This document shows, piece after piece, positions 4,759-33,356 of a stretch of 64,000 bases of DNA (its first letter is position 1; each line of letters opens with the position of its first letter). Made by a program: the position numbers and the translations under genes. Below the pieces are notes generated by a model that was not told the origin of the DNA, searched no databases, and saw only the letters and a list, made by a program, of their open reading frames with translations. Source of the DNA: a bacterium (GTDB lineage Bacteria > Patescibacteriota > Minisyncoccia > Moranbacterales > UBA2206); contig JAURXY010000015.1 of the NCBI GenBank assembly GCA_030654225.1, positions 397 to 64,396 on the forward strand, written 5' to 3'.

Positions 4759-5529
4759 CTAAAGAATAGTTTTTTTAATTTGATTTTTTTCATCTGGACA
4801 AAAATCACCAATCTTTTCTAATAGTCTACCCCCGTCACTAAATTCAGTTTGCGCATTCATAAGACAACCGGAAATTGCGTTATGCCCTAGTCCAAGTTGA
4901 TGGCCAAATTCATGCAGTAGTAAACTTGACATATGCGTGTCGAGATTTATTTGAGTATCATTTCGCATACTATTGGAAAGTGAATTTTTAAATATTACTA
5001 TTCCATTTTCTAAAAGTGTTGACCCCAAATTTGCACTATCATCTTTTTTCTGGCTTGCGATAAAAACATAGATGATTGCTCCTTGTGAAGATGGGGAAGA
5101 ATTATTTTTCTCTAATTCTTTTTGCAAATCTCCCATATTTATCGAGGCCTCATATTTGATACCTGGTCGAAATAAATAGATTGTTTTTTTCCCAGTTATC
5201 TCTTCAACTTTTTTTGCAAAAATTTTGGCGGTTTCATCGCTAATTTCCAACCCATTCATAGCAACAATTTTTATGCTTATATTTTTATATCTGTCTCCCA
5301 GATAGTCCGCCTTTGCATCCCCATCAAAATGAAGCCCGAGAGCTTGGCGCATCATTGGATAACGCGCAAACTTGTATCGCAAATTATCATTGAAAAAATT
5401 GCTTCCAGTGTCCAGTGCTGAAAACCTAAAATACATAAAGATGGCTAGGCCAGAAATGGAAAGAAGTAAAATAATTACAAATAGAAATTTTACTATACGC
5501 ATATTGATTTTATATCTCAATCCTATCAC
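4759..5529 (-). CDS. Membrane-anchored metzincin-type zinc metalloprotease (HEFGHQLGLGHN).
   Basis: HExxHxxGxxH zinc-binding motif near the C-terminus; N-terminal TM helix. Confidence 0.75.
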   Translation of the reverse strand: MIGLRYKINMRIVKFLFVIILLLSISGLAIFMYFRFSALDTGSNFFNDNLRYKFARYPMMRQALGLHFDGDAKADYLGDRYKNISIKIVAMNGLEISDETAKIFAKKVEEITGKKTIYLFRPGIKYEASINMGDLQKELEKNNSSPSSQGAIIYVFIASQKKDDSANLGSTLLENGIVIFKNSLSNSMRNDTQINLDTHMSSLLLHEFGHQLGLGHNAISGCLMNAQTEFSDGGRLLEKIGDFCPDEKNQIKKTIL

Positions 5530-5561
5530 AAAAAGTTCGCGCTGTCTTTGTTAATACAAAA

Positions 5562-5592
5562 AATAATCCCGATTACTCGGGATCATTTTTCA
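5562..5592. terminator. Hairpin ATCCCGA-TTAC-TCGGGAT flanked by A-run and T-run, a putative bidirectional terminator.
   Basis: Perfect 7-bp stem with poly-T downstream on both strands. Confidence 0.4.
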
Positions 5593-5678
5593 CTGAGCTG
5601 GGAAGTTTACCCCGTAGTTATTTATATACTTCTGGGGTGCATATAGTTCGGACTGGGCTTGGGAAGAAGTGCTTTGTG

Positions 5679-6709
5679 GCTTAATTAAAAATATGGGAGG
5701 CTAAAATTATCAATTTGTGGCATACTAAAGCTACAAATCGACTAATAATTATGAAGCTCCGTAATATGTTTAAAAAAAATGCCCCCAATGCAATTTCAGG
5801 AAAGTAAAAAAGAATGGAAAACGAAGAGGATTACAAAGATACAAATGCCAAAAATGTGGATTACAATTTCAAAGCAAGGGACGTCCAAATAGGGAGAAGA
5901 ATAAATTATGGAATCAGTATGTCTGGGGCAAGCAAACACTAAAACAATTATCAATTACATTTAAGAAGTGTATTCCAGCTATTCAGAAAAAATTAGATAG
6001 TCATGTGTTAGAAAAAAATGAAGTATCTCCACAACCCTTAGTACTCATCGCAGATGTAACATTTTTTGGAAGAAGCTATGGAATATTAGTTTTCAGATCT
6101 CAGTTACTTAAAAGAAATATATATTACAGAGAAATTAAGCGAGAGAATCCAGAAGTTTACAGACAGGCAAAAATTGAGTTAGAAAACAAAGGATTTATCA
6201 TTACAGGCATTGTTTTAGACGGCAAAAGAGGCATACGCGAAGTATTTCCGAATATTCCGGCTCAGATGTGTCAGTTTCACCAAACAGCTATTTTGAAACG
6301 CTATTTGACCTCTAGACCGAAAACAAAAGCAGGACAAGAATTGCGAGCAATTGGATTGGCGCTAACAATTTTAACAGAAAAAGATTTTGAAACATTATTA
6401 AATGAATGGTACGAAAGATGGAAAGATTTTATTAAAGAAAAAACATTTGCCTCCGATGGAAAACATTGGAATTACACTCATCGCAGAATGCGATCCGCAT
6501 ACCGAAGTCTGAAAACAAACACTCCGTTTTTATTCACACATCAAAAATATCCGGAACTCAATATTCCAAACACTACAAATTCGCTGGATGGATTTTTTGG
6601 AAAAATAAAAACGCTCCTGCGTGTCCATAAAGGACTAACACAAGAGCGTAGGTACAAAATTATTCAAGAAATTTTGGAAAAATAGCCTCCCAATTATTTA
6701 ATTAAACCA
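5679..6709 (+). mobile_element. IS1-family-like insertion sequence of about 1.03 kb with imperfect 25-bp terminal inverted repeats (GCTTAATTAAAAATATGGGAGGCTA ... TAGCCTCCCAATTATTTAATTAAAC).
   Basis: Terminal inverted repeats identified by eye. They enclose a single transposase gene with an IS1 InsA-like zinc finger. Confidence 0.6.
5751..6685 (+). CDS. Transposase, IS1-like (InsA-type CPxC...QRYxCxxC zinc ribbon fused in frame to the catalytic body). Full-length reading needs a -1 shift within an A8 run at 5772-5779.
   Basis: Frame 0 reads MKLRNMFKKNAPNAISGK-stop. The -1 frame from the A-run reads KKCPQCNFRKVKKNGKRRGLQRYKCQKCGLQF... and runs uninterrupted into the tracked ORF 6005..6685. The zinc-finger pattern matches IS1 InsA. 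Confidence 0.6.
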
Positions 6710-6714
6710 GCTTT

Positions 6715-6906
6715 TCGAAAAGCCTAGGCTCCACCCCAAAGCTCAACTTTTTAGGACGCCTTCATTGAATTTTTTTCCCCGTTATTCCGCGTCAAGTCTG
6801 CGTAAGTCCGCGGTGTAAACACACTAATCTGCAGGCAAGAATCCGAACTAGGAGCTCAGAAAAAGAAACAACATCGAGGTACGACTCAGCCGAAACCAAA
6901 TCGCCC
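6715..6906 (-). ncRNA. GC-rich structured non-coding segment abutting the IS right end. It is a candidate ncRNA, possibly a disrupted tmRNA-like gene, but unassigned.
   Basis: No ORF here. GC is well above the local background. The minus-strand reading begins GGGCGAUUUGGUUUCGGCUGAG, reminiscent of the tmRNA 5' tRNA-like motif (GGGGnnGAUUnnGGAUUCGAC). Several local helices are present (CCGCG...CGCGG). A 14-nt perfect palindrome GCTTTTCGAAAAGC lies at the IS junction. Confidence 0.2.
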
Positions 6907-7062
6907 ATATCTTGAAAAATGTTTCTATATTGATGACAAAAGATAGAAGTCACCAATTGCCTGCAATTTACTGCTAATCATCTCAAAAACATTAAGTTTC
7001 AAGATGACTTTGGAGCATAGCATAAGTTGGAAATTTTGTCAAATGGGTGTACAATTGGAATT

Positions 7063-8067
7063 ATGATAACAACATCCAACGAACAACCTGAAGACCTAAC
7101 TTTCGATGTCACTCTTCGCCCACAAAATTTCAACGATTATGTGGGGCAAGTTAAGGTTAAGAAAAATTTGGACATTTTGATTCAAGCGGCCAAGCACAGA
7201 AAGGAGTCTATTGAACATGTTTTGCTTTATGGCCCAGCCGGCCTTGGCAAAACAACGCTGGCCAATATCATCGCCAAGGAAATGGGCGTCAACATCAAAA
7301 CTACTTCCGGCCCAGCTATTGAACGCGTGGGTGATTTTGGCTCAATTCTCACCAATCTTTCTGACGGAGACATTCTTTTCATCGATGAAATTCATCGCCT
7401 CAATAAATCCATCGAAGAAATTCTCTATCCAGCTATGGAAGATTATAAATTGGACATTATTATCGGCAAAGGTCCGTCAGCTCGAACTATTCAACTTGAT
7501 TTGCCAAAATTCACTTTGATTGGCGCGACCACCAAACTGGGTTCTATTTCCAATCCTCTCCGCAATCGTTTTGGCGCCATTCATCGTTTGGAATTTTATA
7601 CCAACCCAGAAATCAAAAAAATTCTTGAGCGCAGTGCCAAAATTTTGGGCGTAGTCGCTGACGAAACCGGTCTTTCAAAAATTTCCGAATGTGCTCGCTC
7701 TACTCCTCGCGTGGCGAACCGTCTTTTGAAACGCGTGCGCGATTTTTCTCAAATAAAAAATCATGCTATTATAAACGAAGCAGTAGCAATCGAAGCGCTG
7801 GAAATGATTGATGTTGATCCGCTTGGACTTGAACCCGCAGACAAACATATTCTGCGAGTCATCATCGAGAAATTTAATGGTGGTCCTGTGGGACTAGGCA
7901 CAATCGCCGCCGCTACTTCGGAAGAAATCAAAACCATTGAAGATGTTTATGAACCATACCTAATTCAAATTGGATTTTTAGCCAGAACTCCACGTGGAAG
8001 AATCGCTACTGAAAGCGCTTATGATCATCTAGGAATAAAATATAACGGGGAGAAAAAATTATTTTAA
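7063..8067 (+). CDS. ruvB: Holliday junction branch-migration ATPase RuvB.
   Basis: [36 protein letters not shown] and the C-terminal winged helix are a classic RuvB signature. The start was moved to the internal ATG (MITTSNEQ...). Confidence 0.93.
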
Positions 8068-33154: not shown

Positions 33155-33356
33155 AGTTTATTAAAGAATTATTTTTTTTTCGAAATTAACTCGAGCCCTA
33201 AAAATTATTACTAAAATTTTCCCTCAATCAACGGCGGTCATAGGAAAATTTTAGATAATTTTTGGACTCTCAAACAGAAATTTCTCAAAAAAGATAATTC
33301 TTTAATTATAATTTTGGCTTTTCGTAGTTTCGTTTATTTAGTAGTTCGTAAATTCT

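Follow-up and report, generated by a model that had tools for sequence, protein, structure and literature searches.

Programmed recoding is established for the insertion sequence (IS) families IS1, IS3, IS5 and IS630 and has been proposed for the ISMich2 group, with the shift joining two substantial open reading frames (ORFs) (PMC3711429, PMC6211511, PMC3942029, PMC4066793). The IS256 family is not among the recoded families that have been listed (PMC3711429; PMC6211511). In full-text searches of the literature, ISfinder not being covered, we found no report of recoding in IS256- or IS1249-type elements and none of a transposase that is reached through a tract a few codons past the start. Here we describe an element with this layout in a 64,000-nucleotide stretch of DNA from a bacterium of the Moranbacterales (assembly GCA_030654225.1, contig JAURXY010000015.1, positions 397 to 64,396 of the forward strand), hereafter the window. 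This IS256-family insertion sequence spans 1031 bp (5678–6708) and has GG...CC ends; its transposase frame lacks a start codon ahead of the zinc ribbon and is separated from the conserved ATG by a run of eight adenines (A8). The break between the two frames is very probably a programmed recoding site, whether RNA polymerase or the ribosome is the machine that slips.

The described systems each share part of this layout. IS1 (insA/insAB') has the same kind of zinc ribbon (NF050000), an A-rich slippery site (AAA AAY) and low-level recoding that limits transposase, but it belongs to another catalytic family, and its shift, always -1, lies between the ORF of a functional InsA repressor and InsB'. 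In window-type elements, by contrast, only 2–5 codons separate the ATG from the shift, and nothing but a leader peptide, of 13 or 18 residues in the window, is encoded upstream. Poly-A at the junction of the transposase frames, with both +1 and -1 orthologues, is likewise known from IS630, IS3/IS1447 and IS5 (PMC3711429; PMC6211511); those tracts, however, join two substantial ORFs that carry the DNA-binding and the catalytic domains, and the Roseiflexus IS630 has an upstream hairpin stimulator, whereas the window-type site has none. The ISMich2 group of prokaryotic Mutator-like elements falls in the same superfamily, and a conserved -1 frameshift has been proposed as its regulation (PMC3942029), although the break there separates two ORFs, each of which encodes part of the transposase, and does not lie at the start codon. 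In architecture, the nearest analogue is prfB, the gene for release factor 2, where recoding after a short first ORF is obligatory and nearly the whole protein lies in the second frame (PMC5009743). The prfB shift is nevertheless a fixed +1 at CUU UGA, stimulated by a Shine-Dalgarno sequence and autoregulatory, whereas the window-type site is a homopolymer, occurs in both directions and has no evident sensor.

A preliminary description of the locus had called the element IS1-like. That it is an insertion sequence with a transposase is borne out by its terminal inverted repeats and its match to an IS256-family model, but the IS1 assignment does not stand. With the NCBIfam model NF048019 (IS256 family transposase, variant Zn-binding type), the protein reaches 328.7 bits, where the cutoff is 150 (E 3e-98), and the match covers residues 13–310 and model positions 2–300 of 304, whereas the IS1 model NF033558 (transpos_IS1) reaches 32.7 bits against a cutoff of 100 and covers only residues 11–53, which are the zinc ribbon. 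The InsA-type ribbon that the description had recognized is present, with scores above cutoff for both the IS1/IS1595 zinc domain (NF050000, IS1_IS1595_Zn; 39.6 bits, cutoff 28) and IS256_N_4Cys (38.5 bits), but such ribbons are common to several families and do not define IS1. Pfam returned only sub-threshold matches (Zn_ribbon_InsA, 14.4 bits; MULE) and no match of the transposase to the IS1 DDE domain.

In an alignment of 23 family members, the four ribbon cysteines (C3, C6, C25 and C28) and the catalytic D94, D149, C166 and H169 are invariant, while position 272 is D or E in the motif NTTNSL[DE]G; the protein thus carries the Mutator/IS256 catalytic signature (D; D then C-x2-H; an acidic residue in N-x-x-[DE]). 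A single-sequence search of PDB gave nothing relevant, whereas the family profile reached the ISCth4 'Mutator family transposase' structure 6xg8 (E 3e-5) over the stretch that holds the CxxH and both Asp residues. The terminal inverted repeats, 25–27 nt and 85% complementary, fit the length of about 20–30 bp expected for the IS256 family. Judged by its sequence, the element belongs to the IS256 family, in its zinc-ribbon variant, and not to IS1.

Within the IS256 family, the IS1249 group (IS1249 of Corynebacterium and the 'IS1249 family transposase' of Collinsella) has the Mutator/IS256-type DDE core with C-x2-H after the second Asp, and it shares with the window element the N-terminal CxxC...CxxC ribbon and the terminal inverted repeats, and with the relatives of that element the 8-bp target duplications. 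It differs at the start of the gene: IS1249 proper, as represented by Collinsella, lacks an A tract and starts at a normal in-frame ATG, four codons ahead of its first Cys. The window protein is about 26–29% identical to IS1249 and scores 137.7 bits against a cutoff of 300 with the IS1249 model; at 1031 bp and 303 residues the window element is the shorter of the two, and its third acidic residue is D and not E. ISCth4 (IS256 family; 6xg8, 6xgw and 6xgx) resembles the window protein in its catalytic core, which aligns over both Asp residues and the CxxH, but it is distant, is reached by the profile only, lacks the four-Cys ribbon and has no recoding described.

The reading frames of the window copy are laid out in Table 1. 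The transposase frame has only two Lys codons ahead of its first Cys, with a product that opens KKCPQCNFRKVKKNGKRRGLQRYKCQKC... (KKCPQC...QRYKCQKC) and closes at TAG 6683–6685, and it contains no ATG, GTG or TTG until GTG 6005, 77 codons in. Two ATGs, at 5751 and 5766, share a frame that is one base ahead of it. ATG 5766–5768 is the start that is conserved in relatives, two codons before the run, whereas ATG 5751 occurs only in this copy. A -1 shift, or one added A, at 5772–5779 joins these ATGs to the long ORF, and a heptamer of the form X_XXY_YYZ, A_AAA_AAU, occupies 5774–5780 in the zero frame of ATG 5766. The need for a -1 shift at the A8 run, which the preliminary description had pointed out, is therefore real, since both ATGs are out of frame with 5774–6685. 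The same description placed a stop after MKLRNMFKK, which is wrong: the ATG frame runs on as MKLRNMFKKNAPNAISGK to TAA 5805–5807, and the stop beside the A8 run (TAA 5771–5773) belongs to the zinc-ribbon frame and not to the ATG frame. Reinitiation after the leader was considered and is ruled out, the transposase frame having no start codon before 6005. By itself the A8 run is unremarkable, because the window is 65% A+T and holds 45 A or T runs of at least 8; its significance comes from comparison with relatives.

Relatives came from collections of metagenomes and genomes as well as from annotated plasmids, and a relative was counted as intact if its ORF ran on from the first Cys for 290 codons or more. 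This gave 52 loci, forming 32 clusters at 90% identity, that are 29–86% identical to the window protein. In all ten close relatives (76–86% protein identity, two collections), the ATG is followed by two codons and an A8-TGY or A7G-TGY, with a frame offset of -1, and 21 further loci, found via three homologous proteins, show the same register. No A9 allele occurs among these 31 close relatives, all of which have A8 or A7G at the same place. The search for A9 copies with an intact single ORF, which the preliminary description had proposed as a check, was thus negative. Its suggestion that the window holds a freshly inactivated copy can be set aside, as the frame break is no fresh indel but stands in the same register in 31 of 31 close relatives. 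Its alternative, a form of expression control, is supported by the conserved out-of-frame layout and by the lack of an in-frame ATG in any intact relative.

Across the 32 clusters, an in-frame ATG before the first CxxC is found in none and an in-frame TTG in two. A run of A6–A8 lies at the junction in 29 clusters, and the nearest ATG is 2–5 codons upstream of the run, in another frame; the shift needed is -1 in 18 clusters and +1 in 14. If the frames of the ATGs were random, the chance of finding none of 32 in frame would be (2/3)^32, or about 2e-6. Translation cannot begin in the transposase frame at many intact loci, where no more than two open codons precede the first Cys. The sole copies with an in-frame ATG (L064 and L065, which have A5) carry premature stops downstream, and a relative on an Emticicia plasmid that is only 29% identical to the window protein still has A8 with the frame break. 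Among the best 120 homologous protein clusters of a large protein database, 118 are called from downstream of the first CxxC.

The other two of these 120 protein clusters were considered as possible full N-termini and rejected as artefacts. The start of P0042 is a TTG chosen by the gene caller, and the locus still reads ATG-GCT-TGC-A7-G out of frame; P0108 depends on TGA read as sense. In the P0108 relative L073 (91–114), the database protein MLWCIKKCNFCGS was predicted with TGA as Trp, where the standard code reads ATG TTA TGA, and L014 and L015 have a like arrangement, ATG-ATA-TGA, in the transposase frame. An alternative genetic code in these hosts is unlikely; the ORFs of L073, L014 and L015 contain no other internal TGA.

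Some relatives depart from the common form. Two intact ones keep the out-of-frame ATG without a long A run, L034 (420–440) with the junction ACC AAA GAT and L037 (444–460) with the junction TTT AAAAGAAA after a strong TAGGAGG; either they have been disabled recently or they shift on a different signal. The relative on the Aliarcobacter cibarius plasmid pACIB (L069, 503–1567) is annotated 'hypothetical protein' and truncated to 208 residues; the terminus GGCTTAATTAAAAA is common to this copy and the window element, and a TAG right after the tract closes the leader frame of the plasmid copy. A further relative annotated 'hypothetical protein', on the Klebsiella pneumoniae plasmid p90CM2-MCR-253k (L070), is among the few that have an in-frame TTG, and its run is only A5.

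The region that lacks a start codon bears the marks of a coding sequence. In seven close relatives, the ratio of nonsynonymous to synonymous substitution rates (dN/dS) is 0.03–0.2 over the first 77 codons, the same as in the rest of the ORF, with synonymous sites near saturation (proportion of synonymous differences, pS, 0.5–0.8). Because C3 and C6 are invariant and dN/dS is low in codons 1–77, substitution patterns indicate that this start-less N-terminal stretch is under purifying selection and hence translated.

Copies with the frame break are mobile. One Flavobacteriales genome contains six copies of a 1227-bp relative, each with a different perfect 8-bp duplication, in two subtypes that are 99.8–100% identical within and 96% between. 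All of them read ATG AAC A7 CTGC, in an element of 59% G+C that uses AAG for 14 of its Lys codons and AAA for 4, and in which the junction tract is the sole A run of at least 5. An A8-type relative, 77% identical to the window protein, is present with an identical protein at no fewer than four sites, and its site 8-mers recur on opposite sides of different contigs (TGATTCTC, GGATTATA, TCAATTTC and TGAAATCG, each on both sides; L077–L083). Target duplications of 8–9 bp are expected for the IS256 family, and those of the relatives are perfect at 8 bp, in 6 of 6 cases in the one genome and also at L010. Together, the perfect duplications and the recurring 8-mers mean that the out-of-frame form is the form that transposes. 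Target duplications were unreadable in most short metagenome contigs, where the flanks come from different copies. Three Logan contigs (L087, L089 and L094) are 1033–1034 nt long, which is the length of the element, as for collapsed repeat unitigs, and the short-contig flanks are chimeric, with left and right 8-bp flanks from different insertion sites.

For the level at which recoding takes place, we give slippage by RNA polymerase an even chance. Transcription would be driven from within the left end, by the block TTTGTGGCATACTAAAGC, which is invariant among close relatives and whose CATACT aligns with TATAAT in L009 and L010; lying about 40 nt ahead of the ATG, this block may be a promoter of the extended -10 type. 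A consensus promoter scan, which depends on a -35 element, did not report a promoter at the left end. Translation would start from ATG 5766, the conserved one, or from its in-frame neighbor ATG 5751; on unaltered mRNA, ribosomes would make only the 13- or 18-residue leader peptide, stopping at 5805–5807. On a minority of transcripts, RNA polymerase would slip on the A8/T8 tract and add one A (A8 to A9), which would bring the ATG in frame with KKK-CPQC... and allow a transposase of 306 or 311 residues to be made. With no functional upstream protein, recoding would serve purely as a throttle that keeps transposase low. Three of these points are inferences: that the block is a promoter, that translation starts at ATG 5766, and that the slip is made by RNA polymerase and not by the ribosome.

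RNA-polymerase slippage is favored because both shift directions occur among orthologues. In the -1 class the tract is one base short (A8-T, A7-G or A7-C; 18 clusters) and in the +1 class it is one base too long (A7-T, A6-G, A6-C, and A8 in Emticicia; 14 clusters), and the two classes are interspersed across the family. According to Antonov et al. 2013, ribosomal sites keep to one direction, and a mixture of +1 and -1 among poly-A orthologues of a transposase marks programmed transcriptional realignment (PMC3711429). The family shows two features of such realignment, a homopolymeric A tract exactly at the conserved frame junction and shifts in either direction. At the tract, we found no stimulatory RNA structure: the consensus fold has -3.35 kcal/mol and no compensatory pairs, and the single-sequence fold (z = +2.0) gives no stable structure. 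The preliminary description had read the run as a slippery site for -1 ribosomal frameshifting or transcriptional slippage; the mechanism need not be ribosomal, and +1, being about as frequent as -1 among relatives, points to the polymerase.

Several observations weigh against polymerase slippage and its operation in this copy. Efficient slippage in bacteria was demonstrated with 9-nt runs (Atkins et al. 2016, PMC5009743), and tracts of A6–A8 are shorter than the RNA:DNA hybrid of about 9 nt; slippage efficiency should therefore be low, especially in the A6 relatives. The window site is also a well-formed -1 heptamer, A_AAA_AAU, the analogue of A_AAA_AAC in IS1, and in the zero frame of every relative two AAA Lys codons stand in tandem, where tRNA-Lys can re-pair either way, so that a ribosomal mechanism fits every class too. 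In the A+T-rich close relatives, where AAA makes up 83% of Lys codons and 13 of 23 invariant Lys columns are all-AAA, the purity of the tract is weak evidence of selection, because codon bias often gives AAA AAA. The window copy itself may not be active at present, its putative target duplication matching at only 5 of 8 positions and its repeats carrying four mismatches.

Programmed ribosomal frameshifting in early elongation is accordingly a possible explanation, if one we hold with less confidence. From ATG 5766, the ribosome would shift -1 on A_AAA_AAU, with tRNA-Lys moving from AAA to AAA and tRNA-Asn from AAU to AAA, and in the other class tRNA-Lys would slip +1 or -2 on AAA AAA. A canonical X_XXY_YYZ heptamer in the zero frame of the window and the tandem AAA AAA that all classes read in that frame agree with this, as does the use of A_AAA_AAC by IS1 without an established stimulator (PMC4066793). 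The Aliarcobacter relative, which reads AAA AAA TAG and needs +1, is reminiscent of the stop-stimulated prfB site, and in some relatives a strong Shine-Dalgarno sequence lies about 12 nt upstream of the tract (L052, GAGGAGGG; L037, TAGGAGG). A Shine-Dalgarno sequence at such spacing stimulates -1 shifts in dnaX. Against a ribosomal shift, orthologues differ in direction, 18 clusters needing -1 and 14 needing +1, a pattern taken to indicate transcriptional realignment instead (PMC3711429); there is no downstream stem-loop or pseudoknot and no conserved structure, although some known sites, IS1 included, lack stimulators too; and most members of the +1 class have no slow or stop codon after the tract. 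A more particular form of the ribosomal explanation, which we consider rather unlikely, is start-proximal: in the first elongation cycles a ribosome that is held by the Shine-Dalgarno sequence and carries a very short peptide may be frame-labile on tandem Lys codons, which would then be a minimal, bidirectional recoding signal.

Explanations at the level of DNA or of the data fare worse. If the A tract were a hypermutable switch, most copies would be OFF and replication slippage would make rare A9 copies ON. Homopolymers of 7–8 nt are prone to indels, and tract lengths do differ within two genomes (A5 versus A7 in the metagenome-assembled genome FK5.bin11, A5 versus A6 in Prevotella dentasini), but the A5 alleles come from a contig of about 2.5x coverage and a draft P. 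dentasini record, where an error in tract length is possible, and the two in-frame A5 copies are otherwise broken. With no ON allele among the 52 intact ORFs in 32 clusters or the 31 close relatives, with eight near-identical Flavobacteriales copies all at A7, and with newly transposed copies that have perfect duplications all OFF, such phase variation is improbable. Simple death of the window copy by a one-base deletion (A9 to A8) would agree with its being the sole copy in the window, with the four repeat mismatches and with flanks that match at 5 of 8 positions. It is very improbable nonetheless: every relative is in the same register without an A9, and the 303-codon ORF is intact, with all catalytic and zinc-binding residues kept. 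Least credible of all is an undercalled homopolymer in sequencing or assembly. The window has no A run above 8 and no T run above 9, but the same layout appears in independent JGI, ENA, Logan and NCBI assemblies and in complete-sequence plasmid records of cultured Aliarcobacter and Emticicia strains, and genes broken at homopolymers form no pattern elsewhere in the window, where three weak candidates at A7/T7 runs are unlike the transposase case.

The ends of the element were set by homology. The start lies one base to the left of that first reported (5679), and the imperfect 25-bp terminal inverted repeats of the preliminary description are present, at 25 nt with 4 mismatches; a repeat search gave arms at 5677–5703 and 6683–6709 (27 nt, 85% complementary). 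As first described, a single gene lies between the repeats, the 303-codon ORF, whose stop codon overlaps the inner end of the right repeat. The left terminus is kept in relatives, including the Aliarcobacter plasmid copy. The flanks TGCTTTGT and AGCTTTTC agree at 5 of 8 positions, and the window copy may be old, with its ORF still intact. No second copy of the element or of its repeats was found in the 64-kb window. The insertion is intergenic, between a minus-strand gene (4759–5529) and a plus-strand gene (7027–8067), and disrupts neither.

Table 1. Coordinates of the insertion sequence features in the window
Feature	Position	Strand	Basis or detail
Left 8-bp flank TGCTTTGT, possible decayed target-site duplication	5670..5677		5/8 match to right flank
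Left terminal inverted repeat GGCTTAATTAAAAATATGGGAGGCT	5678..5702	+	Repeat search, comparison with relatives
Putative extended -10-like promoter TGgCATACT	5718..5726	+	By eye from alignment
Zero-frame leader ORF, MKLRNMFKKNAPNAISGK and stop	5751..5807	+	ATG 5751 or ATG 5766 to TAA 5805-5807
TAA closing the transposase frame directly upstream of the A run	5771..5773	+	Sequence
A8 tract, candidate recoding site	5772..5779	+	Zero frame AAA AAA AAU; heptamer A_AAA_AAU
Transposase ORF, 303 codons and TAG	5774..6685	+	In -1 frame; no start codon before GTG 6005
Four-Cys zinc ribbon	5780..5857	+	CPQC 5780-5791, CQKC 5846-5857
Catalytic core	6053..6589	+	D94 6053-6055; D149 6218-6220; C166-x2-H169 6269-6280; D272 6587-6589
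Right terminal inverted repeat, imperfect reverse complement of the left	6684..6708	-	Repeat search
Right 8-bp flank AGCTTTTC	6709..6716		Flank comparison

Read by eye from its translation, the product of the minus-strand neighbor has a zinc-metalloprotease-like motif, HEFGHQLGLGH, and that of the plus-strand neighbor is RuvB-like, with the Walker A motif GPAGLGKTT. Between the element and the start of the minus-strand gene, at a distance of about 90 bp from the former, lies an inverted repeat of 14 nt with 93% complementarity (AAAAATAATCCCGA / TCGGGATCATTTTT, 5559–5590), within which a terminator-like hairpin was scored at 5566–5583. Inside the element, a second, conserved A6 run at 5806–5811 is read in frame as GTA AAA AAG (Val-Lys-Lys) and is overlapped by the leader stop; it seems to be a by-product of conserved residues. 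Of the 45 A or T runs of at least 8 in the window, 41 are exactly 8 (e.g., 772–779) and four are 9, all of them T (e.g., 33172–33180), with none longer, and the number of A runs drops from 56 for A7 to 25 for A8 and 0 for A9. The missing long homopolymers could reflect selection against them or an effect of assembly.

In IS1, IS3, IS5 and IS630, recoding separates the transposase from a regulator; in window-type elements its place is the very start of the gene, without an upstream protein, and it acts as a throttle only. The expression-control reading extends to a large clade that spans phyla. Taken jointly with the start-proximal ribosomal slippage described above, and as tentative as that proposal, this clade of IS256-type elements, with members in bacteria of the candidate phyla radiation, Bacteroidota, Campylobacterota and Gammaproteobacteria, may have given up an in-frame start codon, its transposase being reached only via AAA AAA(A) 2–5 codons past a leader AUG, in either direction and with no stimulatory structure. 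The layout defeats gene callers, truncating 118 of the best 120 protein clusters, the record of the window itself (a 226-residue 'hypothetical protein') and annotations from cultured isolates; as a result, members of the family are mis-annotated and under-counted in a systematic way. To judge from the GeneTack method (PMC3711429), a break so close to the start would also escape any frameshift finder that relies on two coding segments. With dozens of natural minimal slippery sites (A6, A7 and A8; +1 and -1) in very different hosts, the family is a series suited to measuring slippage by RNA polymerase or by the ribosome in early elongation, including, via metatranscriptomes, in uncultivated lineages.

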